DNA of 64,000 nt. Source: Gammaproteobacteria bacterium (GTDB lineage: Bacteria > Pseudomonadota > Gammaproteobacteria > Xanthomonadales > Marinicellaceae). The notes under the pieces were generated by a model that ran no database searches, was not told the origin of the DNA, and saw only the letters and a list, made by a program, of their open reading frames with translations. Shown one piece after another: positions 6,663 through 53,908 of the stretch. The number at the start of each line of letters is the position of its first letter. Position 1 is the stretch's first letter. The position numbers and the translations under genes were made by a program. The DNA lies in assembly GCA_030430025.1 (NCBI GenBank), contig JAUIGR010000010.1, positions 1,797-65,796 on the forward strand. Reading direction: 5' to 3'.

Positions 6663-6995
6663 ATGACACCCATTAAATACAGTTGTGTTGTTACATTGTT
6701 GTTAATCAGCACTTTATTACAGGCCACCGAAAAAACAAACACAATCACTCATTCGAATCAAAACCTCAAGGCGGTCATTCCTAAAGATGAGCCGACTGAA
6801 ATCACAGTCATCATTGAAAAAAATAGAAAGATTGAAGAATACCGACATAAAGGCGAGTTGGTATTGGTCAAAGTGACCCCCAAGGATGGTAAACCTTATT
6901 TTTTAGATCCACTGGAAAATAAAAATCTGGGTTCTGGAAAAGAGTTGATAGAGGCTGGTGTTAAACCGGTACATTGGATAGTCAAGGAATTTTAA
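6663..6995 (+). CDS. DUF2782-family secreted protein
   Basis: ATG 6663 with AGGAG RBS; IEEYRHKGELVLVKVTPKDGKPYFL; C-terminal W-x-V-x-x-F. Confidence 0.8.
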   Translation: MTPIKYSCVVTLLLISTLLQATEKTNTITHSNQNLKAVIPKDEPTEITVIIEKNRKIEEYRHKGELVLVKVTPKDGKPYFLDPLENKNLGSGKELIEAGVKPVHWIVKEF

Positions 6996-6997
6996 AA

Positions 6998-11479: not shown

Positions 11480-12785
11480 ATGAACAAATACATATTCGCT
11501 TTATCTATATTTTTCTCTCATACAGTAACAGCGATAACCTTTGAAGGATCAGGTTTTGGTGAGATTCCAGATGGTCCTGGCGCTTGTGGTAATTTAGGAG
11601 ACCCATTGGCTATTAGTTTTGATGTCACAGATGTCAGTGAAGTCAATAGATTAGGGTTAGGTATAGATATCGAACACGACTGGATGGGTGATTTGATTGT
11701 CGAATTGGAAGCACCTGACCTTACTCGCCATACTGTTTGGTCAAACAGGTGCACTAGAGGGAGAGTGCGGTGGAGATAATAGTGATCTCAATGGATATTA
11801 TTATTTTACCGATGAGGCCTCCGAATACTTATTGAATCACTGGTGGATCGTGGCTGCCAATTTGGACCATGATGAAACATTACCAACAGCTTCCTATCGA
11901 ACCACTTCGATGGGAGGAGAAGTTGATGCAGGATTTCAGACTTCAATGAATGAGGCCTTCAGTAATGTGACAGAGCCTAATGGCACCTGGACACTGTATG
12001 TTTATGATAATTGGAAGGTTGTAAGTGGCTATGTCAGTGATGCCTCCTTAACCTTTAACCCTGTTGTTGGTCAAATCAACGATGGCGAGGCTACCTTCGT
12101 AATAGGATACAATGACGGTTATGGAAGCAGCCTGATAATTGATATAGAGTACTTATCCTATATGGGTTGGTCTTATCGACTCGATATTGACACCCAAGAA
12201 TATCTTTTTCCGAAAGCAGATTATGCTATTTATGATGAGGATACTGTGACCATTACCTGGTTAGATGTCGATGACAAAGGTTTCAGAGCCGATTTGACTC
12301 ATGTGATTGATCAAACGGGCCTTGAAGCTGATCAGGCGATTTTAACCAGCACCATGAAAATCACTAATTTAAATGCTGCTGATATCGATATCAGTTTGTT
12401 TAGTTTAGCTGACTTTGATGTTAATGGAATTAATGATGATATGGGTCAATTGGTTAATGATAATATCAGTCACATCAGGCAAACAGATGGTCCTTATCAG
12501 GTAGAGTTTCGAGCAGGCGGTAATGAAAACTATCAAATAGGAAATTACGAATCCGTTGGTTTTCCACTGGTCGGTATTGATGGTGACATTGATGATTTAC
12601 CCAATGGTGAAAATGGTTATGGACCTGATAATATAGCAACAGCTTTTCAATGGTTCAGTGGTCCTTTATCTGCTGATTCCAGTTATCAGGTACAAACCAC
12701 GGTCGCTGTCGGTGGTATCACCGCACCGGAACCAGCTGACCCCGTTAATTCATCAGATCTGATATTTGCTGACGGCTTTGATTAA
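11480..12785 (+). pseudogene. Secreted proprotein-convertase P-domain protein with DLIFADGFD tail, split by a frameshift
   Basis: ORFs 11480-11779 and 11697-12785 join at ~11735 (ELEAPDLTRHT / FGQTGALEG; +1 frame change). P-domain motifs IEHDWMGDLIVEL and NGTWTLYVYDNW lie on either side of the break. Confidence 0.75.
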
Positions 12786-19575: not shown

Positions 19576-20412
19576 ATGGGTAATATATTGTGGTTAGCCT
19601 CCTATCCAAAATCAGGCAATACATGGCTTCGAGTTTTCATTGAAAACTATTTGGTCAACGGTGCTAAACCAGTTGATATTAACTCCATTCATCAAAGATC
19701 CATCGACGAAGTCAAGGCTTTTCGTTATCAACCTTATGTAGGCGATGGTCAAACGACCATGGCTCTGAGTACCGAAGCATTATGTGCTATCAGGCCACGG
19801 GTTCATGCTGATATTGCGGCACAGGCGCAGGGTACAGTATTTGTTAAAAGCCACAATTTTCAGGGTGAGTTCAAAGGATATCCTTTGCACAACTGGCAAG
19901 TCTCATCAGGTGCTATTTATGTGGTCAGAAATCCGCTCGATGTGGCGGTATCAATGGCCGCTTATTTTAATCGAAGTATTGATGAAACGATTGAATATAT
20001 GGCAGAAGATATGACTGGCACTCCTAACGAACCGGAAAATGTGCCTCAAATCATCACGTCCTGGTCTTTACATGTTAAAAGTTGGACAGAAAACGAAGAT
20101 GAGCGGAATAAGTTGGTATTGCGTTATGAGGATATGTTAGAAAATCCTCGTAAGTCTTTTCGTAAAGTCGAGTCACTGCTGGGTTTAAAACGCAATCCGT
20201 CTCGTTTAATGAAAGCCATTAGACATGCGTCATTCAGACAAATGCAAGCACAGGAACGAGGCAAGGGTTTTGTTGAAAAACATGAAGATGCAGGCTATTT
20301 TTTTCGCAGAGGATCTCAGGGTCAATGGCGTGAGGTGTTAAGTGATTCTCAAGTACAAAAAATTGTTGATACTCATCAGCAACAAATGGCAAGGTTTAAA
20401 TACTTGCCTTAA
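19576..20412 (+). CDS. Sulfotransferase domain protein
   Basis: ASYPKSGNTW (5'-PSB), VRNPLDVAVS (3'-PB), LRYEDM, FFRRG. Confidence 0.92.
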   Translation: MGNILWLASYPKSGNTWLRVFIENYLVNGAKPVDINSIHQRSIDEVKAFRYQPYVGDGQTTMALSTEALCAIRPRVHADIAAQAQGTVFVKSHNFQGEFKGYPLHNWQVSSGAIYVVRNPLDVAVSMAAYFNRSIDETIEYMAEDMTGTPNEPENVPQIITSWSLHVKSWTENEDERNKLVLRYEDMLENPRKSFRKVESLLGLKRNPSRLMKAIRHASFRQMQAQERGKGFVEKHEDAGYFFRRGSQGQWREVLSDSQVQKIVDTHQQQMARFKYLP

Positions 20413-29012: not shown

Positions 29013-29732
29013 ATGAAACTCAGTGAAAAAATCAAGTTACTCAGAACAGCAGAAAATTTAACCCAGCCAGAATTAGCGGATAAAGCAGGAATAGAACAGT
29101 CTTATCTTTCCAAACTGGAAAATGATAAGGGTTCACCTTCTTTTACTGTTATTAATAAGATTGCGCAGGCATTTGGTTTAACAGGCATGGAACTGATCAA
29201 TAGTCTCAATCACACATATATAGAGCAAAACTTATCACATATCCCCGAAGTGGCCGCTGAATATGCATCCGTCAAAAAACGTCAAGCTCAACTCTTGAAA
29301 AGGCGTTTTTTAATGGCCTCCTTGACAGTTATTCTGGGTATTGGTGTGTATTTTATGGGCATGATGAAGATTGTTTTTCCCGAAACTGAATATATATATC
29401 AATCATTAGGTGTGATCAAGGATAATGAAACCATTTATCAATTCTATGATAGCACGATCGATGAGCTTAATGAAACTCGAAAAGAAGCTGAGGCAAGGAT
29501 CAAAGCCAATCGAGATCGAATTGATATTAAATTATTAACGATGACAGAGTACCCGGGGTATTCTTTTGTTAAAAAAGAAGATGGTGGTCGTCGACGATAT
29601 GTTAAGCTTGAAGAAAAAAAATTATCCAGCAAGTACAATGATATGGTCTCCATTTTGGGTGTCATGCAGATTGTGGCAGGTGTTTTTATGTTTATTTTTA
29701 CCCAAAAGTTTAAGGACATCAGTTCCGACTAA
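29013..29732 (+). CDS. XRE-family HTH protein with two TM helices
   Basis: LTQPELADKAGIEQSYLSKLENDKGSPS; hydrophobic segments near aa 100-120 and aa 210-230. Confidence 0.85.
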   Translation: MKLSEKIKLLRTAENLTQPELADKAGIEQSYLSKLENDKGSPSFTVINKIAQAFGLTGMELINSLNHTYIEQNLSHIPEVAAEYASVKKRQAQLLKRRFLMASLTVILGIGVYFMGMMKIVFPETEYIYQSLGVIKDNETIYQFYDSTIDELNETRKEAEARIKANRDRIDIKLLTMTEYPGYSFVKKEDGGRRRYVKLEEKKLSSKYNDMVSILGVMQIVAGVFMFIFTQKFKDISSD

Positions 29733-29934
29733 TTGTTACCCACATATGGAAGCGAGGAAAGTTTTTAGTCTAAACTGAACCCTTCTTAGACAGTCTATTC
29801 GACAATAACCAAATAAACTTGTTGGGTCTTTACCAACGTCATTGTATTGATTCTGAAGTCACGAGGTTGAAGATCAGTTGATCCTATCAATGTAAAGTAC
29901 CAACGGAATACAAAAATATGTGCGTTAAAACGAT

Positions 29935-30690
29935 CTAGTGAGCTGTCCAGCCACCATCCAGAGTAATAGCTTGAGCTGTGATGTTTTGGGCTGCAGGGCT
30001 AATTAAGAAAGCGACTGTTTCTGCTAGCTCTTGCGGTTGAATAAAGGTTTTCTTGGGCATGGCAGCCAACATGACTTTATCAATGACTTCCGATTCTTTC
30101 ACTCCATGAACTTTTGCTTGTTGTTTAATTTGTCCTCTGACCATTGGTGTATCAACATAACCGGGACAGATGGTGTTGATAGTGATGTCTTGGTTTTTAA
30201 TTTCCAGTGCGATGCTTTTGGCGAGTCCTAAAAGACCGTGTTTGGCTGCTACGTATGCACTTTTATAGGCTGAGGCGACCAAAGAGTGAACTGAACCGAT
30301 ATTGATAATGCGACCAAAGTTTTGTGCTTTCATTTTTGGTAATACCGCTTGAGTGGTCATGGCTGGCCCCACCAGCATGATGTTAATGAGTTGTTGCCAT
30401 TTCTCAGCAGGGAAAGATTCTAATGGCGCCACATACTGCATACCAGCGTTATTGATCAGGACATCAATGACTTCGATCTCAGTATGTGCTTTTAGTTGTT
30501 CAAGGTGTTTTGAGTTACAAACATCCAACAAAAATGTTTCGACTTTGATACCATCTTCGGTCAGTTGTTGTTTGGCTTCAGCCAAACGCATTTCAGACAG
30601 ATCACTGATGATGACTTCATGGTTTGTAGCCAAATGCTTGGCAATGGCAAAACCGATGCCCGAGCTGCTGCCAGTGATGAGAATTTTCAT
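29935..30690 (-). CDS. bdhA: 3-hydroxybutyrate dehydrogenase
   Basis: GSSSGIG, NNAGMQYVAPLESFP, GSVHSLVASAYKSAYVAAKHG, CPGYVDTP. Confidence 0.88.
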   Translation of the reverse strand: MKILITGSSSGIGFAIAKHLATNHEVIISDLSEMRLAEAKQQLTEDGIKVETFLLDVCNSKHLEQLKAHTEIEVIDVLINNAGMQYVAPLESFPAEKWQQLINIMLVGPAMTTQAVLPKMKAQNFGRIINIGSVHSLVASAYKSAYVAAKHGLLGLAKSIALEIKNQDITINTICPGYVDTPMVRGQIKQQAKVHGVKESEVIDKVMLAAMPKKTFIQPQELAETVAFLISPAAQNITAQAITLDGGWTAH

Positions 30691-32585
30691 GGTCTGTCTT
30701 TGATGATTAATTGTTGGTTATGGGTGGTGATCATGCGTTGTGGATGTTCTGATATGGGCGAATGTCGGAGAACTTGTTGACTGGCAGGTAACGCCTCGTT
30801 TTTTGTCAGGTATAACCACATCAAATCAAGAGCTGCCTCTAAGTGTGGGTGCATGGCTGCAAAATCCTTATCGAAGTCAGGCAGTGATAGCAGGGCATCA
30901 AAATGCTGAGCTGTTTCAATTTCATATAGACGTAGCAGGTGATTGCCTAACTGCTTAGCCTTGTGATAATAAGCTCTGGAACTGTGGTTGATGGAGACGA
31001 TACCGTCAGCAGTACCGTGGAGAATGATCATCGGAATATTCAGTGATTTGCCTGTTACTGAGGTTGATTGTACATGTTGATAATACTGGTTTTTACTTTG
31101 TTTTGCTTGTTGCCACTGCTGATATAAACAGTGTTGTGGAGCGAAGCCATAACCAGGTTGAAAGAGCAGCTTGCTGGGTAATTGCCCAGTTTCGAAGTAG
31201 GCTGGTTCAATGTTTAAGGTAGGTGCAATACCGCTGGATAAAGCAAACATGTTCTGCCAGTCGTGTGCACCGAGTTCGATGCTTTGTGCCATCGCATTGA
31301 ACGCTGAATAACCAACATCACATATCAGCTCTTTGGCTTCACTTTGTAGATAACTGTTGGTGTATGTGATGTTGATAGAAGCCCATAATTGTGTCAACGT
31401 GTTAAAAGGTAACAATGTCATTGATGATGTTGTCCAACCTTTGGTTTTTAGTTGGTCGATGGCTTGTTCTGGTAGTGATAGTTCATTTTCTGAATCAAGA
31501 AAACCATGTTCGGCTAACTGTTGGCAGCGAAGCTCAAGCATCGGTTTGATGACAGCCAGTTGGGAAGAAAAGGGAGCATCTTTTAATTCGACCGACAAAC
31601 TCGCACAAGGTTGTAGCATACCAGCATGATTGGCTAATTCAATTAATGGTTGGCTAGTGATCTTGGCGGTGTGATCACTGGTGTTAACAATGAACTCATA
31701 TTCATTGACAAAAAGTTGGGGCTCAGCTGCTACTACGGCATCAATCAATTGTTTTGTATCCAATTCGGCGGCTTTAACGACAGCGCCTCCTCCATTGGAT
31801 ACACTGGCGGCCAATACCAGGAAATCATTGCTGCTGTATCCCAGTCTTGATAGAGATGCCAAAGCATATTCAATGGAATCTAATACCATGTGCCCCCACC
31901 ACTGTTCGGGGTTAGTTTGTGAATAAGCATGTTTGAAAACCACTTGGTTCTTTACGCCAGATTTGAGTATCACAGGCCCCTCGATGGTGTCAGCCTGCCA
32001 TAAGCCATTCAATTGGTAAGAGCCTTGTGATGTTGCTATTTCCGTTCCTGTCCCCTTATCCGTATATACTACAGCACAGCCTTGACTCAATGCCCAGGCC
32101 CCTGTGGTGCCGACCGCACCCAGCACATTGCGTGAACCACTGGAAGGTGCTACGACAAGGCATGGATGATCAGTGTTGAGCTGTTCCGGGACCTGCAGCA
32201 ATGTGGTGTGACTGACGGTACTGTTGAGTTGACGTTGTGCCCAGTACTCTGTACCAGCTATGGCTTTTTGTGAGCTGCTAATACCATGACTTTGACCATA
32301 GCCATGTGCTGGGTTCAAGTCATTAAGTGCCTTGAATTGAGTATGATAACTGGCTCGTCTTAATTGCTTTGCTGACGGGTTATCAGGTAATTGTGGTGGA
32401 GTTGAACGTAGACCTTCCAATCCCAAACCGGCTGTCAGCAGGTCATCATCGACACCATTGTAAGCGATCTGGTATTGCCAGGGTGCGGCGGCTTTGTTTT
32501 CAACTGTGGTTTGGCAACCTGTTAGTAGCAGGCTGCCAAAGACAGCTAAAGGCCAAATTCTGGTGGCTATTATGTTCATTTTCAT
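30687..32585 (-). CDS. D-3-hydroxybutyrate oligomer hydrolase, lipoprotein
   Basis: Lipobox LLTG-C; DDLLTAGLG, YTDKGTG, HAYSQTNPE, ASVSNGGGA, HGTADG, NHSSRAY, AQHFD. Confidence 0.9.
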   Translation of the reverse strand: MKMNIIATRIWPLAVFGSLLLTGCQTTVENKAAAPWQYQIAYNGVDDDLLTAGLGLEGLRSTPPQLPDNPSAKQLRRASYHTQFKALNDLNPAHGYGQSHGISSSQKAIAGTEYWAQRQLNSTVSHTTLLQVPEQLNTDHPCLVVAPSSGSRNVLGAVGTTGAWALSQGCAVVYTDKGTGTEIATSQGSYQLNGLWQADTIEGPVILKSGVKNQVVFKHAYSQTNPEQWWGHMVLDSIEYALASLSRLGYSSNDFLVLAASVSNGGGAVVKAAELDTKQLIDAVVAAEPQLFVNEYEFIVNTSDHTAKITSQPLIELANHAGMLQPCASLSVELKDAPFSSQLAVIKPMLELRCQQLAEHGFLDSENELSLPEQAIDQLKTKGWTTSSMTLLPFNTLTQLWASINITYTNSYLQSEAKELICDVGYSAFNAMAQSIELGAHDWQNMFALSSGIAPTLNIEPAYFETGQLPSKLLFQPGYGFAPQHCLYQQWQQAKQSKNQYYQHVQSTSVTGKSLNIPMIILHGTADGIVSINHSSRAYYHKAKQLGNHLLRLYEIETAQHFDALLSLPDFDKDFAAMHPHLEAALDLMWLYLTKNEALPASQQVLRHSPISEHPQRMITTHNQQLIIKDRP

Positions 32586-32588
32586 TCA

Positions 32589-34805
32589 TTAGAAATTATA
32601 AGTGATCGCTGCATACCATGTTCTTGGAGCACCATAGTAAGCAGTTTGGATATTGCCGACACTAGAAAATTCTTGCGCTTCTACTTTATATACTTCATCT
32701 CCGAGATTTTTACCTCCAATAGTCAATGCCCAGGCTGGGTTGGCAAATTCGTAAGTGGCGTGGGCGTTGTAAACCCAATAACCTTCTTGAGTTAGTGCTT
32801 CCTGATTGTCGACAGACAGATACATGTCATCAATGTAGCTGGCCTGTGTACTGAGTCTTAAATTGCCACCTGTTGATATCGGTATGTTGTGATGAAACCC
32901 CAAATTAAATGTCCACTCTGGGGAGAAAGGTGGAATGTCATCCGATCGGTCTTCATCTGGACGTCTAAAGTCGAAGAATTGATCGTATTCAGCATCCATA
33001 TAACCGATGGCGCTATTGAAGTAGGTATTAGTGCTAATCAGCCAGGCCAGCTCTATTTCTGCACCTTGAATAGAGAGTTCGGCAGCGTTGATCACCGGGA
33101 AACTGGAAATGTCCTCAGCAACTCGGGCTTGAAAGTCTTCATAATCGCTACTGAAGACAGCATAGTTAGCCCTTAATCTGTTGTTTAAGAATGTTGACTT
33201 ACCACCAAATTCGTATGTCCATACTGTTTCAGGTTTGAATGAACTGACATCACTGGCACCATTGGCACGTCCATTGAATCCACCTGACTTGAAGCCTTTC
33301 GAGACACTGGTGTACAACATGTGATTGTCATTAATCTGATAGTCTACAGAAATCATCGGTGTAACACTGTCCCAACTGTCTTTATCATTAAATGAAAAGG
33401 TACCATTGAGGAAAGCCCCAGCATCTGAGAGCGTAGAGGTGGTTCGGAAGTATTTTTTTTCGTCTTTAGAGTATCTTATCCCGGCTGACATACCCCAGCG
33501 GTCATTAATTTGCCAGTTGGCTTGAGTGAATAAAGCATAGCTAGTGGTCTCCAAGTCGTCTGCAATGGTCCTCAGAAAATCTAAAGGAAAACCGTCGTAA
33601 AGTAAGAAATCATCTGCATAGGCTTCCTGATATGAAGGCACATCTTCCTGCATATAATAAGCGCCAATTACACCACTTAAGCCATTGCCATTATTAAACA
33701 GCATCTGTAACTCTTGACTGAATTGATTTTGATCGACACCGACGAATACATCACCAAGCTCTAATGTACTGGCGTCTATGTCAATAAAAGAATCAGATTG
33801 TAAATCACGGTGAGCGGTGATGGACCTCATTTGCCAGACATCATTGATATCATAATCGATGATAAAACTGATGCCCCAATGTCGCAGTTCTTGATTTTCA
33901 TCGTTTCTAAAAGAAGAGCTGGATTGGAAATCAAACTCTTCTCCACTGGGTACATACAGTGGAACCACACCACCGGCCAAATCAACAGCTACTAAAGTGG
34001 CCTCTGGATTGCCCAGAGACAAGGCATTCTCTTGGTTGGTATAATCCATCGTTAATTGCCAGTTGAAACGATCATTATTGGCTGAATTGAATTTCACTCT
34101 GAAAGATGTATTATCTCTGTCGTTGTAGTGTTGCTGTGTGATTGGATCTGTGACAAAGCCATTATCGAGTCCATAAAGTGTCGAGATGCTGAAGTTGGTG
34201 CTGTTACTAACGGCGCCAGCATAGTAAGCGTTGAGGGATGTTTTTCCGTAGTCGCCAGCCAGTACTTGTATGGTGCCTGTGGTTTCACCAGTGGCTTGTC
34301 GTGTGACTACGTTGATGGCACCACCGATGGTGTTTTTACCATAAAGAGTACCTTGAGGTCCTCGTAACACTTCAATTCGTTCAACATCATACAGGTTCAT
34401 CAAGGCACCCTGAATACGTGATAGGTAAACACCATCGATATAGATGCCAACTCCTGGATCAAAAGTTTGAAGGGCATCAGGTTGTCCGATACCTCGGATG
34501 TAAACATTGGCGCTGGACGATGAGCCTCGACCGAGCACCAAATTCATGTTAGGTACGGCGCCATTTAGCGAGTCCAGACTTTCGGCTTGTGCTTCTTGTA
34601 ACTCTTCTCTTGAAAAAGTAGAAACGGCGACAGGCACCTCTTGTAATGATTCCTCGGTTTTTCTGGCTGTGACTTTGACGTCATCCAAGGCCAGCGCTTC
34701 ATCTTCTTGGTTGTTCTGTGCCCAGGCTGGTTGTCCAACTTGCCAACCTAAAATGGTACTAAGTAATGTTAAATTAATAGCTTGATTTAGAATGGATTTT
34801 TTCAT
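32589..34805 (-). CDS. TonB-dependent receptor
   Basis: Signal peptide; VKVTARK, VPVAVS, RIEVLRGPQGTLYGKN; C-terminal PRTWYAAITYNF. Confidence 0.95.
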   Translation of the reverse strand: MKKSILNQAINLTLLSTILGWQVGQPAWAQNNQEDEALALDDVKVTARKTEESLQEVPVAVSTFSREELQEAQAESLDSLNGAVPNMNLVLGRGSSSSANVYIRGIGQPDALQTFDPGVGIYIDGVYLSRIQGALMNLYDVERIEVLRGPQGTLYGKNTIGGAINVVTRQATGETTGTIQVLAGDYGKTSLNAYYAGAVSNSTNFSISTLYGLDNGFVTDPITQQHYNDRDNTSFRVKFNSANNDRFNWQLTMDYTNQENALSLGNPEATLVAVDLAGGVVPLYVPSGEEFDFQSSSSFRNDENQELRHWGISFIIDYDINDVWQMRSITAHRDLQSDSFIDIDASTLELGDVFVGVDQNQFSQELQMLFNNGNGLSGVIGAYYMQEDVPSYQEAYADDFLLYDGFPLDFLRTIADDLETTSYALFTQANWQINDRWGMSAGIRYSKDEKKYFRTTSTLSDAGAFLNGTFSFNDKDSWDSVTPMISVDYQINDNHMLYTSVSKGFKSGGFNGRANGASDVSSFKPETVWTYEFGGKSTFLNNRLRANYAVFSSDYEDFQARVAEDISSFPVINAAELSIQGAEIELAWLISTNTYFNSAIGYMDAEYDQFFDFRRPDEDRSDDIPPFSPEWTFNLGFHHNIPISTGGNLRLSTQASYIDDMYLSVDNQEALTQEGYWVYNAHATYEFANPAWALTIGGKNLGDEVYKVEAQEFSSVGNIQTAYYGAPRTWYAAITYNF

Positions 34806-34862
34806 GTGGAGGTGTCCCGATTATTAAGCTGAATAAAATATTACAACATTAGAATAACTAAT

Positions 34863-34878
34863 TTCAATATATGTTTAA
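34863..34878. promoter_or_regulatory. Candidate TetR operator (imperfect palindrome)
   Basis: TTCAATATATGTTTAA, 12/16 self-complementary, between the divergent receptor and TetR genes. Confidence 0.3.
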
Positions 34879-35003
34879 TCTTTTACAAAGCCATCGTTAA
34901 AATAACGTCATCATTTTGAGAAAAGAGCATTTTGTTGATAAGATCTCCATGATAAACTGATTCACTTTGTTGATATTCAATCTAAGCGGATAAGGAAAAG
35001 TAA

Positions 35004-35648
35004 ATGGCCTTGGATACCAAAACATTGATATTGGATGCTGCTGAAAAATTGTTTGCCACTCGAGGATTTTATGGGGTGTCCATGAGACAAATTACCATTG
35101 AGGCAGGTGTTGACCCTGCTTTAGCCAATTATCATTTTGGGAAAAAAAGAAACTTATTTGATGCAGTGATGTTGCGACGTGCTGAGGTGTTGAATCGAGA
35201 GAGGATACAAATGCTAGATGATTGTTTGCGACGAGCCAAACCTAATCCACCGCCGCTTGAAGAAATCATAGATGCTTTTACCCATGCCTTGCTCAATCGC
35301 TCTAACAAAGGCGGTGCTGGTTGGAAACATTATTTTGCTATCATTGCACAAATCAATAATCATCCAGAGTTGGGTGGCGTGATCATGACTCAGTATTTTG
35401 ACCCTTTGGCTAAAAAATTTATGAAAGCCATCACTCGGGCCTTACCAGATGCACAACCTGAGGATTTATATTGGTGTTATCATTTCTTGTCGGGTGCATT
35501 GACTTTAACTTTTTCTGGAACCAACCGCATCAATAATTTATCTGATGGCTTATGTAATGCCAGCGATTTAGATGCTGTACATGAACGTCTGGTACCATTT
35601 ATCACAGCAGGTTTTTCAATTTTTAAATCATCTGTCAGTCAGCGATGA
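35004..35648 (+). CDS. TetR/AcrR regulator, PsrA-like C-terminal domain
   Basis: ILDAAEKLFATRGF, ANYHFGKK, YWCYHFLSGAL. Confidence 0.9.
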   Translation: MALDTKTLILDAAEKLFATRGFYGVSMRQITIEAGVDPALANYHFGKKRNLFDAVMLRRAEVLNRERIQMLDDCLRRAKPNPPPLEEIIDAFTHALLNRSNKGGAGWKHYFAIIAQINNHPELGGVIMTQYFDPLAKKFMKAITRALPDAQPEDLYWCYHFLSGALTLTFSGTNRINNLSDGLCNASDLDAVHERLVPFITAGFSIFKSSVSQR

Positions 35649-35653
35649 TTGGT

Positions 35654-37852
35654 TTAATTGGTCGATAGCTTGGCAAATTTGGCAGCCAACACTTTCGGAC
35701 CGACTTGATTGAATTGCACCAATACTTGTAAATAATCGCCTTTACCACTCATGTCAGTGATAACACCCTCACCAAAACTGGCATGATGGACAGTTTGGCC
35801 AATGTGATAGGGTGTATCTGTGTTTGGTTGGATTTGTTGTTGATAAGGTGATGCCGAATCTATTATTTGTCGGTGATGACGTGCTGGATGAATATTGCCA
35901 CGTTGTTGTTGTACCAATTGGTTGGGTATTTCTCTGAGAAATTGGGAAGGTTGGCAGGGCGTGATTTTACCTCGTAGTCTTCTTGATGTCGCATAGCTCA
36001 TGAACAGTTTTTTCTCCGTTCGGGTGATACCAACATAGCATAATCGACGTTCTTCCTGCAGTTTGTTAAAATCTTCCATGGAGTTTTGGTGTGGGAACAA
36101 ACCTTGTTCCATACCAACCATGAAGACAATTGGAAACTCTAACCCTTTGGCTGAATGCAGGGTCATCAGTTGAACATGTGGTTCATCCTCGTTATCGCGA
36201 TCACCAGCATCTAACGATACAGCAGCTAAAAAAGAAGCCAAGGGACTCAGTCCTAGTGCTGCATCTTCATCGCTGATTTGGTGAGTCTCTGCTGCATTGA
36301 TTAACTCATCAAGGTTTTCTAAACGTGTTTGTGCTTTTTCAGGTGGTTCTTTCAAGTAATGGTCTTTCAAGGCGCTGCGTTCAATAATGTCATGGAATAA
36401 ATGACTCAAGATTTGGTCTTGATGATTGTTGTCTAGTTCATCAATCATTGAACAAAAAGCGGTGAAACTGCTGGCAGCACGGTTTGATAAGCTACCAGAT
36501 TTAACCAATGAGATGGCTGATTGCCAGAGGCTGGTTTGATTGATTTGGGCATGGTTTCTTATCATATTGAGTGTTTTCAGTCCCATACCCCTGGTTGGTG
36601 TGTTGATAACCCGTTCAAAGCCAATGTCATCATGGCGATTATTGACTAACCGTGCATAAGCCATGACATCTTTGATTTCCATCCGTTCAAAGAATCGTAA
36701 ACCGCCATAAATTTGGTAGGGGATCTGGCGTTTGATCAATGTTTCTTCCAACAGCCGGGATTGCGCATTTGAACGGTACAAAATAGCAATTTCATCGGCC
36801 CGAATGGTATCACGTAGTAGTTGTTCAATTGCTTCACCGACATAGAATGCTTCATCGAACTCTGAGTGAGCACCGTATATATTGATTTTGTCACCTTGCT
36901 CCTGAGCTGACCACAGCCGTTTTCCTAGACGATTTTTGTTGTGTTCAATCACACCATTGGCTGCATCCAGTATGTTTTGCGTAGAGCGGTAGTTTTGTTC
37001 GAGTTTATAAAGAGCCGTGTTGTTATTGAGGTTCTGGAAATCGAGGATGTGGTCGACTTTGGCACCACGCCATGCATATATGGACTGGTCATCATCACCG
37101 ACAACAAAAAGTTTGTTGTTTTTGCCTGCCAGTAGTTGAATGAAAGCTGACTGAATATTATTAGTGTCTTGAAACTCATCAACCAAAATGTGTGAAAAGC
37201 GCATTTGATATTTGTGTAATAACTGATCATTATTGAGTAGCAGCTCATGGGCTCGTAGTAACATTTCAGCAAAGTCAACTAAGCCTGCACGCTGACAATG
37301 ATTTTCATATTGTTGATAAATTTTAGTCAGTGTTTGTGTATTGAAGTCACCAAAGTTTTCAATTTCGTCAGCTCTTAAACCTTCGTTTTTATTATCATTG
37401 ATAAAACCCTGAATAGCCCTTGGTGGCCACTGTTTTTCATCTAATTCCAGATCACCGAGACAGCGGCGAATTAAGCGATATTGGTCATCGGAATCGAGAA
37501 TTTGGAAATTTTTAGGTAGCTTGGCTACTTCAGTATGAATTTGTAGTAATCGGAGAGCGATACTATGGAAAGTACCAATCCACAAGTTGTTGACGTCTTG
37601 TTTAAGCATGTAGGCAATGCGGTTACGCATTTCTGCTGCGGCTTTGTTAGTAAAAGTCACCGCCAAGATGCTGTAGGGAGAAATAAATTCTGCGCCAATC
37701 AACCAAGCAATGCGATGAACCAGCACCCGAGTTTTGCCGCTACCGGCACCAGCTAAAACCAAAGCATTTTGTGCTTCTGTAGTTACGGCTGCTGCTTGGT
37801 CATCATTGAGGTTATTTAAAATGGTTTCCGTGCTGATGTTCATGGTGGCCAA
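35654..37852 (-). CDS. uvrD: DNA helicase II
   Basis: AGAGSGKT, DEFQD, VGDDDQSIY, QNYRST, TLHSAKGLEF, EERRLCYVG. Confidence 0.96.
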   Translation of the reverse strand: MATMNISTETILNNLNDDQAAAVTTEAQNALVLAGAGSGKTRVLVHRIAWLIGAEFISPYSILAVTFTNKAAAEMRNRIAYMLKQDVNNLWIGTFHSIALRLLQIHTEVAKLPKNFQILDSDDQYRLIRRCLGDLELDEKQWPPRAIQGFINDNKNEGLRADEIENFGDFNTQTLTKIYQQYENHCQRAGLVDFAEMLLRAHELLLNNDQLLHKYQMRFSHILVDEFQDTNNIQSAFIQLLAGKNNKLFVVGDDDQSIYAWRGAKVDHILDFQNLNNNTALYKLEQNYRSTQNILDAANGVIEHNKNRLGKRLWSAQEQGDKINIYGAHSEFDEAFYVGEAIEQLLRDTIRADEIAILYRSNAQSRLLEETLIKRQIPYQIYGGLRFFERMEIKDVMAYARLVNNRHDDIGFERVINTPTRGMGLKTLNMIRNHAQINQTSLWQSAISLVKSGSLSNRAASSFTAFCSMIDELDNNHQDQILSHLFHDIIERSALKDHYLKEPPEKAQTRLENLDELINAAETHQISDEDAALGLSPLASFLAAVSLDAGDRDNEDEPHVQLMTLHSAKGLEFPIVFMVGMEQGLFPHQNSMEDFNKLQEERRLCYVGITRTEKKLFMSYATSRRLRGKITPCQPSQFLREIPNQLVQQQRGNIHPARHHRQIIDSASPYQQQIQPNTDTPYHIGQTVHHASFGEGVITDMSGKGDYLQVLVQFNQVGPKVLAAKFAKLSTN

Positions 37853-38949
37853 TTACAATGCGTTTCTAGAATATGAACTTGTTCTCCAGCAATGACTGGA
37901 AACTGTTGTTTAATATGTGCTTCAATGGCTTTAATACCTTCAGGTCTAAGAGGATAGTAATACTGTCTGCTATTGGTATCAGAGTGTTCAACCCTAACCG
38001 CAAGTATACCAGCCTGTTGACTTTTGACATAAGTTAAATTGGCCTCTCGTTTGTTTTCGAGATCACTGCTGTTATCAATCCAAAAGGAACCAGTGAGGCG
38101 ATTCTGTTCAAAGGCTCCCAAGCATATCTTATCTTCATTTAATGGCCAGTGTGTTGGCTGGAATAAGTGTAATTCTAGTCCATGTACTTGGAAAGCTGCC
38201 ATCGCTGTTCTCTGCTGTATTATCCAGTCGATGTATTGATCAGCTGTGCCATCAAAAAAAGTAACAAAATGATGCATCGAAAACATGGGGCTGAATACCA
38301 AGTGGTCATGCAAGTAAAAATAATTATGTTGTTTGCTCTGAGACATGGTTTTGGATTGACTCTGTAAGACCGCATGCTCAATGATTTGCCAACAAGCATC
38401 TTGCCCTAATTGTTGATAATGATTATGCATCATGGCAAGTAAGTCGATATTACTGAGGTAATTGGCATGTTGAACAGTCAAGCCAGTGATTTCGCTTAAC
38501 GCCTGGTAAGTAGGTGGAGAGATCATGCCTTTATTCATCAGATCTTGCTCGAATGCTTGGGCAATGGTTTCGCTATTGGTATACAAGATGAAAGGTATCA
38601 GCATCAGCGGTTGACTAGAATGGTGTGGCTGTAACCCTTCAGGCATTTGACCATGGTCAGCGCCAATAGATAGGACTTTGTGCTGCTGTTGCTCACCTTG
38701 CATTGCAGCTGAGGCGTATTGATTTAATGTGCTATGTATTGGCCATTTGGGCTGAAGTATTTGTTCAACAGGATAACAAGCCACCGAGCATGCTAACGAG
38801 ACGTTCTCTTTTGTCATTGAAAGAATCGCTGTTAAGTCTCGGCTTATGGTTTCTACTAGCTTACTGGCATCGGTCTTATCAATGATTTGATTAAAGGATT
38901 GGTGGCATTCCAAAGCAATCATCCCTTGCAGTTGGTATTGGACATTCAT
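37840..38949 (-). CDS. Hypothetical protein between engB and uvrD
   Basis: 369-aa ORF; 2-nt gap to engB and 13-nt overlap with the uvrD start; no motif recognised. Confidence 0.8.
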   Translation of the reverse strand: MNVQYQLQGMIALECHQSFNQIIDKTDASKLVETISRDLTAILSMTKENVSLACSVACYPVEQILQPKWPIHSTLNQYASAAMQGEQQQHKVLSIGADHGQMPEGLQPHHSSQPLMLIPFILYTNSETIAQAFEQDLMNKGMISPPTYQALSEITGLTVQHANYLSNIDLLAMMHNHYQQLGQDACWQIIEHAVLQSQSKTMSQSKQHNYFYLHDHLVFSPMFSMHHFVTFFDGTADQYIDWIIQQRTAMAAFQVHGLELHLFQPTHWPLNEDKICLGAFEQNRLTGSFWIDNSSDLENKREANLTYVKSQQAGILAVRVEHSDTNSRQYYYPLRPEGIKAIEAHIKQQFPVIAGEQVHILETHCNWPP

Positions 38950-46327: not shown

Positions 46328-46999
46328 ATGGTTACACACAAATATAAAAAAACACAATTTTTTTTATTGTTATCGATGTTTTTACTTTTGGTGGGGTGTG
46401 GTGCTAAGCCGAAGCCTATTTCTCAAAAAGAGTTGTTGATTAATGCGCTGATGATCAAAGATAACAGGGCAATCACACAGCATAAAACCATCATTGAGGA
46501 TAAAAGACGGGTATTAAATCTGGTTCAACTGTATCAATTAATGGTTGCCAATGAGCCTTATCGTGTTATTGCCAATAGTCAAATATTGCTTGGCAATATA
46601 CACCATTATTCATTGCCACAACAGGCTATCCTTAAACAAATTTTATTATGGGCCTATGCGCACCCTATTTATCGACAAGAAACAGGTAAACAAATTCGCA
46701 TATTACAGCGGACTGAGTTACTGGTTGCACCCAGTGAAGTTGACTTTCTCAAATGTGAAAGGGATTTAAGCACTTGTTCTGACTTGCGTCGACAAATTGA
46801 ACACATCATTAGTACCAAAGAGTTGAATGAAGCACTTTATTTGATGGCTGATCATGATCCTTGTATTAATCTCGGAGATGAAGGTTTAACTGGAGATTTT
46901 GCCAATCAGTGTCTGGCCAGTCGAAAAGGCGATTTAAAGATTAATCTGCTCAGTATGCCAAGCTTTTTAGTTGAGCAGTGGGAGGTGGCTTTGGAGTAA
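46328..46999 (+). CDS. Hypothetical lipoprotein
   Basis: Lipobox LLVG-C; three further Cys; no family recognised. Confidence 0.7.
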   Translation: MVTHKYKKTQFFLLLSMFLLLVGCGAKPKPISQKELLINALMIKDNRAITQHKTIIEDKRRVLNLVQLYQLMVANEPYRVIANSQILLGNIHHYSLPQQAILKQILLWAYAHPIYRQETGKQIRILQRTELLVAPSEVDFLKCERDLSTCSDLRRQIEHIISTKELNEALYLMADHDPCINLGDEGLTGDFANQCLASRKGDLKINLLSMPSFLVEQWEVALE

Positions 47000-49648: not shown

Positions 49649-51487
49649 ATGAAAGCAATAACGATGGCTGCTGGTATGATGCTGGCCGCCCATTCAATAG
49701 CGGCAGATAATGCGCCGCACCTAAAGTTTAATCAACTATTAAAACCAGAAACATTATATCAGCAAAGAGACTCTAAGGCTCTTAAGGGAGTTGTTATAGC
49801 TACAGTAGGTGATGATAATGCATGTGACTATCGATTAGGAACAACCAGAATTAATGATGCCATCAATGGAGGGTACATTCACATTAGGGTGGCAGCAGGA
49901 ACATATACAGAAAATATCAGCATTGTTGACAAAAATATGACCATAGAAGGTGGGTATGCTAATTGTACGGATGCTGCTAATGATGTTGTAGGTGGCGGTA
50001 GTACAATCATAGATGGATCAGGAGATACAGCAACCTCTGTGGTGGGGATCTCGGGAAACTCTGATGTTTGGAATATCACCCTGAGAAGGTTGACTATCCA
50101 AAATGGAGGTACTATCTCATTGCTTGTTGGAGGAGGCATTAATGTTATAAATTCAGATGCCAATATTTTGTTTGATAATCTTATTATTTTAGAAAATACA
50201 GCCAACTTCGGCGGCGGGATTGGTATTATTTTCGGTGCTCCTTCAATTAATATTGTGGACACCAATATTTGGAGCAATACAGGTAATTCGGGAGGAGGAA
50301 TCTCTTGTAATTCTGTTGGTGCAGGGATTAATTTTTACGATACAGGAAATGCGGGTAAGGGTTCAATCTTTGGTAACCAAGTTGTTTTGAGAGATGGTGG
50401 AGGTGTTGAGCTGCTTGCAGGCTGTTCGATGATATTATTTTCAGGTCAAGATCCAGATAATCTCATAGATTTTAGAGGTATTATCAATAATACAAGTGTT
50501 AGGCACGGCGGTGGAGTTTATGCTGCTAATGGGTCTCAGTTTACTGCAATTGGTTTCTTTTTCTTGGCAGGAAATAATGATGCTCCTGCTACTGTCAGGG
50601 CTAATACGGCTGACAGTGACAACAATGACGAAGGTAATGGTGGTGGCATTTATCTAACGGGTGCGAATACTTCAGCAGGTTTGTATAACATCAGACTGTC
50701 TGATAACAGCGCATATAATGGTGGTGGTATAGCTGTTGAAGAGGGTGCAACTTTATTGACAGAAGCCATTAAGTTTTCTTCATCGTGCTGGGCTCCAGGA
50801 AAATGTAACCAGATTCACGGAAATCAGGCTGATTCTTTTGGAGGAGCTATATATTCAGATCAATCGGCAGATCTCGAAACCAATACCAGTATCTTTTCCT
50901 CTCATATTTATGGCAATACAGCTGCTTCAGCAGGGTCAGCATCATATGTCAGAGGAGAAGATAATGAATTTTTAATAGAAGGCTCAGTGATCTATGAAAA
51001 CACTGGTGGGTCGGTTGTATTGTATAACTTTACAAATTCGATTGCTCGCTATCAGTTCAATACCATTGCCGATAACCAGGCTGGTTTAAGTATAGTGAGG
51101 AATTTTCAAGGGACCAGTCAATTAATGAGTTCCATTGTCCACCAGTTAGATGCCACAGATGTTTATTCAACTGTATCGCCCGTTGATGATGCGTTTGATT
51201 GTCTCATAACACATGCAGAAACTGGATTTACACCCATCTTTAGCACTATTATTGATGACCCAGAGTTCGTTGATCGGGCAAATGATGACTATCATATCAA
51301 CTCATTCAATTCGCCAGCGGTTGATTTTTGTGATGGTTTTACCGTTCCAGAGCGTGATACTGATATTGATAATGAGCAGCGTGGTTGGGATGATTACACT
51401 ACGGTTAATAACATCGGACCCTACGATATAGGTGCCGATGAGACTTATGGTAATGATATCATATTTGAAGATGGTTTAGAAATGTAA
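49649..51487 (+). CDS. Secreted beta-helix (PMP/GGAI-repeat) protein with choice-of-anchor-Q-like end and DIIFEDGLE tail
   Basis: Signal peptide; repeated N-x-A-x-x-GGGI; DYHINSFNSPAVD ... DIGADE; terminal DIIFEDGLEM. Confidence 0.85.
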   Translation: MKAITMAAGMMLAAHSIAADNAPHLKFNQLLKPETLYQQRDSKALKGVVIATVGDDNACDYRLGTTRINDAINGGYIHIRVAAGTYTENISIVDKNMTIEGGYANCTDAANDVVGGGSTIIDGSGDTATSVVGISGNSDVWNITLRRLTIQNGGTISLLVGGGINVINSDANILFDNLIILENTANFGGGIGIIFGAPSINIVDTNIWSNTGNSGGGISCNSVGAGINFYDTGNAGKGSIFGNQVVLRDGGGVELLAGCSMILFSGQDPDNLIDFRGIINNTSVRHGGGVYAANGSQFTAIGFFFLAGNNDAPATVRANTADSDNNDEGNGGGIYLTGANTSAGLYNIRLSDNSAYNGGGIAVEEGATLLTEAIKFSSSCWAPGKCNQIHGNQADSFGGAIYSDQSADLETNTSIFSSHIYGNTAASAGSASYVRGEDNEFLIEGSVIYENTGGSVVLYNFTNSIARYQFNTIADNQAGLSIVRNFQGTSQLMSSIVHQLDATDVYSTVSPVDDAFDCLITHAETGFTPIFSTIIDDPEFVDRANDDYHINSFNSPAVDFCDGFTVPERDTDIDNEQRGWDDYTTVNNIGPYDIGADETYGNDIIFEDGLEM

Positions 51488-52606: not shown

Positions 52607-53908
52607 ATGAAAAAAATACTTTGTTTACTTTCCGTTTTTTATTTAGGCATTTCATGGGGGTCTCAGTATTACAAGACAGAGACCACAACCATGGATTATC
52701 AAGATATCGATGACATGGTTGATCGTGTGATGCTTTTTGATGGCAATGAGGGTTACTATGATGACCTATCAGCTGAAATAGAGTTACCCTTCCCGTTTCT
52801 TTTTTATGGGCAAGAATATAACAGCCTGCGCGTTAGTACCAATGGTTATTTGGTTTTTCCTGATGATCAACCTGGTGATTACATGGGCAACGATCCCTTA
52901 CCTAGTACAGACGAACCCGATGGTATCATTGCTGTCTTTTGGGATGATTTAATAGTTCAAGATGAAGGGACAACAGATCAAATATCATATGTTGTTCAAG
53001 GTGAAGCACCTAATCGAGTCTTGATTGTTGATTATCGTTCAGTGAGTTTTTTTAGCCCTAGCGGTTACATTTATTCACAAGTTAAATTATTTGAGGGAGG
53101 TCATGTCATAGAATTCCATTATGATAATAGTTATCCCGATATAGTAGCTAATGCATCAGCCACCATTGGTCTTGAACATCCTTGTGGTTGTCTTGCCGAT
53201 CCAGGGCCTAATGCAGATAATACAAATAGCACTACGCCTAATGAAGCTTATCGCTTTAGTCCGGTTTATTATACCCGCAGTGAAATTGATATGGATTACA
53301 TAACCACGATGAACATGCCTGGAAGGGAGATACTTTTTAATGGCGGTGTGGGTTCCTATGATGATGATGAAGCTGAGATCAATCTACCATTCACATTTGA
53401 GTTTTATGGAACAGCTTATGACAGCCTGCGGGTAAGTACCAATGGTTATTTGGTCTTCCCTGAGGGTGAAATAGGCACTGACTTTGGCAATGATTCATTA
53501 CCTAATACAGGAGGCCCCAATGGCATTATTGCAGTCTTTTGGGATGATTTAAAAGTTAGGCAAAATGATGGTTATATCGATCAAATCTCATATGTTGTTC
53601 AAGGACAGGCGCCCAACCGAGTGTTGATTATTGATTATCAGTCGATAGGATCTTTGAGTAATGGCGATGATAATATATGGGCTCAGGTTAAGCTATATGA
53701 AAGCAGTTATATTATAGAACTTCATTATCAAGAAGATTTGAGTGATACAGATTCTGGTGGAGTCGACGCCACTATGGGTCTGGAGCATCCTTGTGGTTGT
53801 CTTGCTGAACCAGGTCCTAATTACGACAATGACAATGACGTAATACCGATGGTTGCCTATCGCTACACACCTAACGATTTAATTTTTATGAATGGCTTCA
53901 ATGACTGA
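52607..53908 (+). CDS. Secreted protein with two tandem nidogen-like domains and DLIFMNGFND tail
   Basis: Signal peptide; twice LPF-x-F-x-FYG-x-x-Y-x-SLRVSTNGYL ... IAVFWDDL ... GLEHPCGCLA. Confidence 0.85.
   Translation: MKKILCLLSVFYLGISWGSQYYKTETTTMDYQDIDDMVDRVMLFDGNEGYYDDLSAEIELPFPFLFYGQEYNSLRVSTNGYLVFPDDQPGDYMGNDPLPSTDEPDGIIAVFWDDLIVQDEGTTDQISYVVQGEAPNRVLIVDYRSVSFFSPSGYIYSQVKLFEGGHVIEFHYDNSYPDIVANASATIGLEHPCGCLADPGPNADNTNSTTPNEAYRFSPVYYTRSEIDMDYITTMNMPGREILFNGGVGSYDDDEAEINLPFTFEFYGTAYDSLRVSTNGYLVFPEGEIGTDFGNDSLPNTGGPNGIIAVFWDDLKVRQNDGYIDQISYVVQGQAPNRVLIIDYQSIGSLSNGDDNIWAQVKLYESSYIIELHYQEDLSDTDSGGVDATMGLEHPCGCLAEPGPNYDNDNDVIPMVAYRYTPNDLIFMNGFND

Follow-up and report, generated by a model that had tools for sequence, protein, structure and literature searches.

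Few storage polymers of bacteria are as abundant as polyhydroxybutyrate (PHB), which is also one of the leading biodegradable plastics. To our knowledge, the textbook pathway for its utilization, which consists of a secreted depolymerase, an oligomer hydrolase and the 3-hydroxybutyrate (3HB) dehydrogenase BdhA, is silent on how the outer membrane is crossed in Gram-negative bacteria. The depolymerase and oligomer hydrolase of Ralstonia pickettii A1/T1 and the PhaY/PhaZ2/BdhA enzymes of Ralstonia and Paracoccus convert PHB to oligomers, then to 3HB and acetoacetate, but no outer-membrane importer has been assigned in these systems. The subject of the current study is a 64,000 nucleotide stretch of Marinicellaceae DNA, designated the window (assembly GCA_030430025.1, contig JAUIGR010000010.1, positions 1,797-65,796 of the forward strand), that shares with these systems the PF10605 hydrolase family and the same predicted chemistry. 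A TonB-dependent receptor (TBDR), a PF10605 lipoprotein 3HB-oligomer hydrolase (3HBOH) and BdhA are encoded by what is predicted to be a tightly packed operon under the control of a local, divergently transcribed TetR-family regulator. The gene content and its conservation make it probable that this TetR-repressed three-gene operon serves the uptake and catabolism of exogenous (R)-3HB oligomers, the soluble fragments of PHB, and the weaker claim, that the operon serves the catabolism of exogenous 3HB esters, is very likely to be correct.

Several described systems resemble the locus. In the carbohydrate utilization (CUT) loci of Xanthomonas (for example the SuxA sucrose locus) and in the TonB-receptor-based carbohydrate uptake of Caulobacter (MalA and NagA), the genes for a TBDR, a degradative enzyme and a local repressor lie together and serve the scavenging of scarce carbon, an arrangement shared with the window. 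The polysaccharide utilization loci (PULs) of Bacteroidota, typified by SusC/SusD, likewise share the logic of an outer-membrane TonB-dependent transporter combined with lipoprotein hydrolases that act on oligomers. However, the predicted substrate in the window is a polyester oligomer rather than a carbohydrate, and no glycoside hydrolase was found by Pfam. An inner-membrane transporter, which is part of the definition of a CUT locus, is neither in nor next to the window locus, whereas its relatives have a GntP-like permease or one of the major facilitator superfamily (MFS). In contrast to the PULs, there is no SusD-like gene, the position after the receptor being occupied by the PF10605 gene, the receptor is of the classical proteobacterial kind and the regulator is a TetR protein, or a two-component system in the relatives. 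The locus is thus CUT/PUL-like but a member of neither class, since the window has neither a carbohydrate enzyme nor SusD nor an inner-membrane transporter for it. A preliminary description of this DNA, made from the letters and a list of open reading frames (ORFs), had called it a polyester analog of a PUL or CUT locus; the clustering of receptor, enzyme and regulator agrees with that view, with the missing inner-membrane transporter as a caveat.

The nearest conceptual precedent for TonB-dependent polymer import appears to be PegB, the TonB receptor of the sphingomonad peg operon, which was proposed to bring polyethylene glycol into the periplasm and is clustered with catabolic dehydrogenases (PMC11644497). 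The likeness is conceptual; polyethylene glycol is a polyether, and both the enzymes, a polyethylene glycol dehydrogenase and an aldehyde dehydrogenase, and the regulator differ from those of the window. Full-text searches (subscription-only literature was outside the scope) found no paper that links TonB receptors to genes of PHB or 3HB degradation, in accord with the earlier statement that no TonB receptor for hydroxyalkanoate oligomers has been characterized. A TonB-receptor utilization locus with a polyester as its predicted substrate is a natural extension of TonB-receptor biology.

The gene order and coordinates (Table 1), the short gap, the overlap and the divergent TetR gene given in the preliminary description all matched the ORF list and the sequence. 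Read directly, the receptor-hydrolase junction is TAA tga ATG, with a 3 nucleotide gap, and the hydrolase-bdhA junction is ATGA, a 4 nucleotide overlap in which the start of bdhA overlaps the stop codon of the hydrolase gene. This overlap, suggestive of translational coupling to a 3HB-specific dehydrogenase, provides indirect support for a 3HB-oligomer substrate of the hydrolase. The locus is flanked by unrelated housekeeping genes, uvrD and yihA on one side and, on the other, glnD together with an XRE-type helix-turn-helix gene. The latter encodes a 239-residue XRE/HTH_3 regulator (window 29013-29732, +), is convergent to bdhA and is absent from the module in the Marinicella loci. The locus is unbroken on a 22.9-kb Logan contig that is identical in runs X1 and X2, possibly the same data, and a third run holds a near-identical strain. 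The window has a G+C content of ~41%, and the sequence was present in metagenomes from biofloc and aquatic sources, habitats in which PHB accumulators abound.

Strong homology evidence identifies BdhA as a cytoplasmic NAD-dependent (R)-3-hydroxybutyrate dehydrogenase. The protein scored 322.4 bits against TIGR01963, the 3-hydroxybutyrate dehydrogenase model (cut-off 307.05). All 12 PDB matches with E <= 1e-40, among them the 11 best (E <= 8e-52), are named 3HB dehydrogenases, and the top one was 6ZZQ with E = 2.5e-60. The stretches GMQ, GSVH, YKSAY, AAKHG and VRGQI align with conserved stretches of 6ZZQ; these presumably hold the catalytic Ser-Tyr-Lys of the short-chain dehydrogenases/reductases and the carboxylate-binding Gln, His, Lys and Gln, by the residue roles described for the Pseudomonas fragi enzyme. 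BdhA has no signal peptide.

The hydrolase matched PF10605 with E = 2.6e-119 (400 bits, cut-off 27), residues 40-613 corresponding to profile positions 27-651 of 688. It has a lipobox, LLTG followed by Cys at residue 23, and in an alignment of 13 PF10605 sequences this Cys was nearly invariant, while six further Cys were invariant. Residues S261, N262, G263, G264, D525 and H559 were invariant both in the 13 sequences and in 50 family members, the window enzyme included. The motif context suggests that S261 (in SVSNGG, the putative nucleophile), D525 and H559 form a catalytic triad. The lipobox, the invariant Cys and the Ser/Asp/His residues therefore indicate an extracytoplasmic, lipid-anchored serine hydrolase, for which 3HB oligomers are the predicted substrate and the periplasm the predicted site of action. 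An AlphaFold2 model was obtained with a predicted local distance difference test score (pLDDT) of 93. The PDB search by sequence gave no homolog, and the fold search gave only remote matches (template modeling (TM) score ~0.35) to lidded alpha/beta hydrolases of the tannase/feruloyl-esterase/MHETase type, so that no substrate was deduced from the structure. The remotely similar fold is one likeness to the PETase/MHETase pair of Ideonella sakaiensis; another is the two-step logic of a secreted depolymerase and a hydrolase for the soluble ester. However, identity is 10-14% at that low TM score, the substrate differs and no TonB receptor is described in the Ideonella system. The window hydrolase also lacks ~18 residues near the C-terminus that are present in most family members.

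Conservation was traced from the receptor with one genome per species. The scan gave 80 receptor-centered loci, whose neighboring genes were clustered, the recurrent families annotated and the loci then re-scanned with hidden Markov models (HMMs) of these families; the neighboring genes were taken from calls filtered by G+C at the third codon position (GC3) and then from HMM scans of stop-to-stop ORFs. The closest receptors, 62-71% identical to that of the window, came from Marinicella species and related metagenome-assembled genomes (MAGs). The complete module, with TetR divergent from TBDR-3HBOH-BdhA, was also present in two Marinicella species, M. litoralis and M. gelatinilytica, and on four contigs from metagenomes. 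The flanks differ between the window and the Marinicella loci, and therefore the four genes move as a unit. Identity to the M. litoralis proteins was 83% for TetR, the best-conserved gene of the module, and 69% for both the receptor and BdhA; the hydrolase (M. litoralis copy in L002), at 44%, was far more diverged. As a proxy for co-location, the longest contig of 19 of the 30 Marinicella-clade receptor clusters was equal in size to that of a PF10605 cluster.

Among the 80 loci, 43 had a divergent TetR gene, 33 had a divergent gene for a GntP-like permease, a gene for a large hybrid kinase or both, and five fell in neither type, one locus (L013) having both a TetR and a GntP-like gene. A PF10605 gene, a type-2 depolymerase or a validated BdhA was located within 7 kb of the receptor in 27 of the 80 loci, against a chance expectation of ~1%, a rough estimate based on ~3 single-copy genes among ~4000 and ~13 genes per neighborhood. 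All 27 are apparently gammaproteobacterial, several being MAGs with coarse taxon labels only. Several TetR-type loci have no PF10605 gene but likewise point to 3HB. In four of these (L006, L011, L072 and L077) a BdhA that passes TIGR01963 adjoins the receptor, and an MFS permease, a fatty-acyl-CoA-ligase-like enzyme and BdhA occur in such loci in varying combinations, three of them (L011, L015 and L042) also carrying a depolymerase homolog. An alternative route in which the oligomers are hydrolyzed in the cytoplasm may operate there. Six of the loci (the four named, L015 and L042) encode a 300-residue alpha/beta hydrolase with no obvious signal peptide.

In a neighbor-joining tree, the clade formed by the window and Marinicella receptors was sister to a Xanthomonadales clade (45-50% identity), in which a GntP-like permease gene is divergent from genes for the TBDR, an esterase and a hybrid histidine kinase, and genes for a LuxR-type response regulator and BdhA are divergent from PF10605. 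The esterase is a full-length homolog of the Penicillium funiculosum PHB depolymerase 2D80 (E = 3.9e-43) and scored 361 bits against NF050059, the model for extracellular type 2 short-chain-length (scl) polyhydroxyalkanoate (PHA) depolymerases (cut-off 280). The kinase has an N-terminal sodium:solute-symporter domain followed by PAS_7, HisKA, HATPase and receiver domains and matches the NahK/ErcS family model; the regulator is ErdR-like, at 211 bits under the 390 cut-off. Possible signals for the symporter-fused kinase are 3HB and similar short acids. A second receptor clade, 31-35% identical to the window receptor and present in Dyella, Fulvimonas, Pseudoxanthomonas and Marilutibacter, occurs in the same gene context, and the BdhA neighbors of the sister receptor clades passed TIGR01963 in 9 of 10 cases tested. 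The linkage of this receptor clade to PF10605, which the preliminary description had put forward for checking, was supported, in that the Marinicella clade keeps an identical module in different flanks and its sister clades adjoin PHB and 3HB genes.

The same question was approached from the hydrolase by a metagenome scan with a PF10605 alignment, which gave 80 loci that were annotated by HMMs and a tree. The loci split into a Marinicella and Xanthomonadales group and a lower-scoring HMM type (~490-565 bits), within whose clade the Burkholderiales-named PF10605 references fell. The former group comprised four loci with the full module, one short contig with 3HBOH-BdhA only and others that have the kinase and regulator genes on their flanks. 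The receptor was at the edge of the locus in 8 of ~15 kinase-flanked loci and beyond reach in the remainder. Further arrangements were found in the basal marine members: 1) BdhA divergent from 3HBOH and depolymerase-TBDR divergent from GntP-kinase in one locus (L104), 2) TBDR divergent from GntP, with 3HBOH-kinase and the regulator further along, in another (L086), 3) TBDR divergent from GntP-3HBOH-kinase, with regulator-BdhA, in Simiduia and Pseudoteredinibacter, the Simiduia receptor being 33% identical to that of the window over its full length, and 4) BdhA divergent from 3HBOH, and kinase-TBDR divergent from GntP, with the regulator, in a Wenzhouxiangellaceae MAG. In total, the PHB/3HB gene set occurred with the receptor in at least five gene orders. 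The retention of a gene set through repeated reshuffling is a classical signature of functional coupling.

The genes of this larger locus, found in Xanthomonadales, Cellvibrionales and Wenzhouxiangellaceae (genome loci L007, L012, L014, L017, L021, L024, L056 and L081; metagenome loci L093-L159; L162-L164), encode a GntP-like permease, the receptor, the type-2 scl-PHA depolymerase (absent in some), the symporter-fused hybrid kinase, the ErdR-like regulator, BdhA and the PF10605 hydrolase. It looks like a complete PHB-utilization locus, of which the window locus is, to judge from the predicted proteins, a minimal version. Pfam scans of ~50 window ORFs revealed no PHB depolymerase, CoA-transferase or thiolase, and HMMs of the depolymerase, permease and kinase of the relatives gave no convincing match there; the earlier remark that the window has no PHB depolymerase or CoA-transferase therefore stands. 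The suggestion that the oligomers are released by other microbes rests on the absence of a depolymerase from these 64 kb, which is not the whole genome. The evidence is evenly balanced on a more general proposal, that the gammaproteobacterial receptors are the first TonB importers for polyester (PHA) oligomers and mark a widespread PHB-utilization locus in two regulatory forms, the window form being stripped down and living on the oligomers of others. One form would be controlled by TetR (the window, Marinicella, some Lysobacterales, Halieaceae and Cellvibrionaceae) and the other by the ErcS/ErdR-like symporter-fused kinase (Xanthomonadales, Cellvibrionales and Wenzhouxiangellaceae).

The TetR protein has TetR_N and TetR_C_30 domains (112.9 bits for the latter, Pfam), and its best PDB matches were NicR (5FHP) and PsrA (2FBQ; PA3006 of P. 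aeruginosa), with which it shares the TetR_C_30 ligand domain. The score against the PsrA equivalog model NF053516 was 111.5 bits, compared with a cut-off of 300, and consequently the protein is PsrA/NicR-like but not an ortholog of PsrA. The designation "PsrA-like" in the preliminary description is accordingly apt. PsrA controls beta-oxidation genes, whereas the window TetR is predicted to control the receptor operon.

A candidate operator was found by aligning the spacers between the TetR and TBDR genes. The palindrome TTAAACAnnTnTTGAA is common to 6 of 7 aligned spacers from the window, Marinicella and metagenomes, the extracted spacer of the seventh (L083) stopping short. Its core, AAACA-nn-TGTT, resembles the PsrA box, AAAC-N-GTTT. 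Within the 64 kb the only exact match was this site; with up to one mismatch there were 3 matches, the exact site and one palindromic site on both strands, compared with 0.54 expected. The second site, the perfect-armed palindrome TTCAACACCTGTTGAA at window 7843-7858, differs from the operator motif by one mismatch and is probably a chance match because it lies within a glutamate-synthase-domain gene (6974-8584). The -35 hexamer of a promoter-like site upstream of the receptor gene coincides with the right half of the operator palindrome, and the promoter hexamers are also kept in the Marinicella spacers. A hairpin beyond bdhA is the probable end of the operon. The main support for these predicted regulatory sites is their conservation across loci.

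Table 1. Features of the receptor-hydrolase-bdhA locus and its regulator, in window coordinates.
Feature	Position	Strand	Length	Basis
Terminator-like hairpin and T run, ~100 nt past the bdhA stop	29821..29837	-		Consensus match only
3-Hydroxybutyrate dehydrogenase gene bdhA	29935..30690	-	251 aa	ORF list, TIGR01963
PF10605 lipoprotein 3HB-oligomer hydrolase gene	30687..32585	-	632 aa	ORF list, Pfam
TonB-dependent receptor gene	32589..34805	-	738 aa	ORF list, Pfam
Sigma-70-like promoter TTGAAA-18-TAATAT for the receptor operon	34838..34867	-		Consensus match only
Candidate operator, imperfect palindrome TTAAACATATATTGAA, core AAACA-nn-TnTT	34863..34878	-		Spacer alignment, conserved in Marinicella-type loci
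TetR-family regulator gene, divergent from the receptor gene	35004..35648	+	214 aa	ORF list, Pfam

The following scheme is consistent with these observations. TetR would occupy the palindrome, which shares positions with the -35 hexamer of the operon promoter, and would be freed by a ligand, possibly 3HB itself, one of its oligomers or a CoA ester. The receptor, to judge from the genes with which it is associated, would draw 3HB oligomers across the outer membrane with energy from TonB-ExbBD. The membrane-tethered PF10605 lipoprotein, assigned to its family, catalytic residues and export signal by its sequence, would face the periplasm and cut the oligomers to 3HB. The product would then enter the cytoplasm by way of a permease whose gene lies elsewhere, a role that the GntP-like or MFS permease within the locus could fill in the relatives, and cytoplasmic BdhA would oxidize it to acetoacetate, the step with strong homology evidence. 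The genes for the enzymes that would activate and cleave acetoacetate are expected outside the window.

Several observations weigh against the operon being a dedicated system for oligomer uptake, 1) the window scans found no inner-membrane 3HB transporter, no TonB-ExbBD genes and no acetoacetate-activating enzyme, 2) the substrate of the receptor is deduced from its neighbors only, 3) 3HB dimers and trimers (190-276 Da) fit porins, so that a TonB receptor is not strictly needed, 4) the ~40 PF10605 loci of the lower-scoring type, about half of the total, have no TonB receptor within 7 kb, 5) identity is only 31-35% between the window hydrolase and that group, to which the biochemically characterized prototype enzyme presumably belongs, 6) the promoter and terminator matches occur at background frequency, the scan overall not being enriched relative to shuffled sequences and 7) the HMM re-scan recognized no 3HB gene near the alphaproteobacterial orthologs of the receptor (41-45% identity), which suggests that the receptor family may have more than one substrate. 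The linkage of receptor orthologs to 3HB genes, the absence of which the preliminary description had regarded as fatal, was found in the gammaproteobacterial relatives (the 27 loci above), so that the interpretation passed this test. In the alphaproteobacterial orthologs (L027-L061, Caulobacterales and Sphingomonadales) TetR is divergent from TBDR-MFS, with or without an alpha/beta hydrolase. SucC/SucD-like genes downstream of the Caulobacterales receptors were considered as part of a catabolic locus and rejected, since NCBIfam identified them as the housekeeping succinyl-CoA ligase.

The topology of the hydrolase bears on the first alternative, that the enzyme is surface-exposed or released and cuts oligomers outside the cell in the manner of SusG, while the receptor imports the 3HB monomer or at most dimers. 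The residue at position +2 after the lipidated Cys is Gln and not Asp, and by the lipoprotein sorting rule from E. coli a residue other than Asp at +2 predicts the outer membrane. The prototype PF10605 enzyme was reportedly purified from culture supernatant by Zhang et al. in 1997, and some known TonB receptors take up small molecules, sucrose among them. However, the locus has no linked export factor for surface lipoproteins, an organic acid of 104 Da can diffuse through general porins, and the relatives that secrete a depolymerase retain both the receptor and the hydrolase, an observation that periplasmic processing of oligomers fits at least as well. This alternative is for these reasons considered unlikely.

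A second possibility is that the receptor family carries broader or different hydroxyacyl or fatty esters or acids, for example mixed oligomers of scl- and medium-chain-length (mcl) PHA or lipid-derived hydroxy acids, with 3HB oligomers not the main cargo or one of several. The PsrA/NicR-like regulator is compatible with such a cargo, in that PsrA senses long-chain fatty acids, as are the long-chain-fatty-acid-CoA-ligase-like enzyme, the 300-residue alpha/beta hydrolase and the MFS permease of the sister TetR-type loci and the alphaproteobacterial orthologs without 3HB genes. Against it stand the 3HB-specific BdhA that the window has in common with all gammaproteobacterial PHB-type loci, the TIGR01963 BdhA of the TetR-type loci L006, L011, L072 and L077, and the short-chain-length type of the relatives' depolymerase, and a broader or different cargo is rather improbable.

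The receptor itself has the expected architecture, with a Plug domain (PF07715, 76.5 bits, residues 54-163) and a TonB_dep_Rec_b-barrel domain (PF00593, 151.6 bits, residues 230-701) by Pfam. In the translation, the signal peptide ends between PAWA and QNN, the TonB box is LALDDVKVTA, of which V45, T46 and A47 are invariant across 15 homologs, and the C-terminus is TYNF, with a final Phe. An N-terminal signaling extension is absent. The protein scored far under the cut-offs of all named equivalog models of NCBIfam. Its best NCBIfam match was the generic siderophore-receptor subfamily TIGR01783, the best PDB sequence matches were siderophore, pesticin and heme receptors, and the Joint Genome Institute (JGI) label on the relatives is "iron complex outermembrane receptor protein", all of which would suit a receptor that imports an unrelated cargo (a siderophore, metal or vitamin) and is merely co-transcribed with two 3HB genes. 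The TIGR01783 score of 194.1 bits is nevertheless under the cut-off of 223.5, the PDB matches cover the plug domain only and no iron-related feature was present among the Pfam matches of the flanking ORFs or the recurrent neighbor families, a Fur box not having been searched for. The assignment as a siderophore receptor was rejected on account of the sub-cut-off score and the lack of an iron context, and with the PHB/3HB linkage recurring in several lineages and at least five arrangements, an unrelated cargo in general is very unlikely. The receptor is instead predicted, by association with the neighboring genes, to import 3HB oligomers. Recycling of the cell's own PHB or of envelope-associated short-chain PHB, suggested by the involvement of 3HB-oligomer hydrolases and BdhA in intracellular PHB mobilization in Paracoccus and Ralstonia (references listed in PMC7830162), is highly improbable because the lipoprotein signal and the six invariant Cys place the hydrolase outside the cytoplasm, intracellular turnover has no use for an outer-membrane importer and Pfam scans of ~50 window ORFs yielded neither a phaC nor a phasin gene.

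If oligomer import by the receptor is correct, a dedicated receptor would fill the outer-membrane gap in the PHB pathway and extend the substrates of TonB receptors to polyesters. The receptor would also serve as a genomic marker of PHB consumers, including depolymerase-less "cheaters", in marine, soil and aquaculture metagenomes, and the receptor, TetR and the operator would provide parts for strain engineering or biosensors for the breakdown products of bioplastics. The comparative evidence is unusually consistent and opens the idea to direct tests in carriers that can be cultivated.

Other genes of the window were recorded in passing. A 369-residue ORF (37840-38949, -) with no Pfam or NCBIfam match lies between uvrD and yihA/engB, its 3' end overlapping the start of uvrD by 13 nucleotides. 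Three further ORFs of 612, 362 and 223 residues (49649-51487, 11697-12785 and 46328-46999, all +) had no Pfam match at E <= 1e-6. Two proteins of 433-454 residues (52607-53908, +, and 59219-60583, -) had weak matches (~32 bits) to NIDO, a nidogen-like domain of animal type that is unusual in bacteria, and a 278-residue protein (19576-20412, +) had a strong match (E = 2e-33) to Sulfotransfer_1, a family known mostly from eukaryotes.

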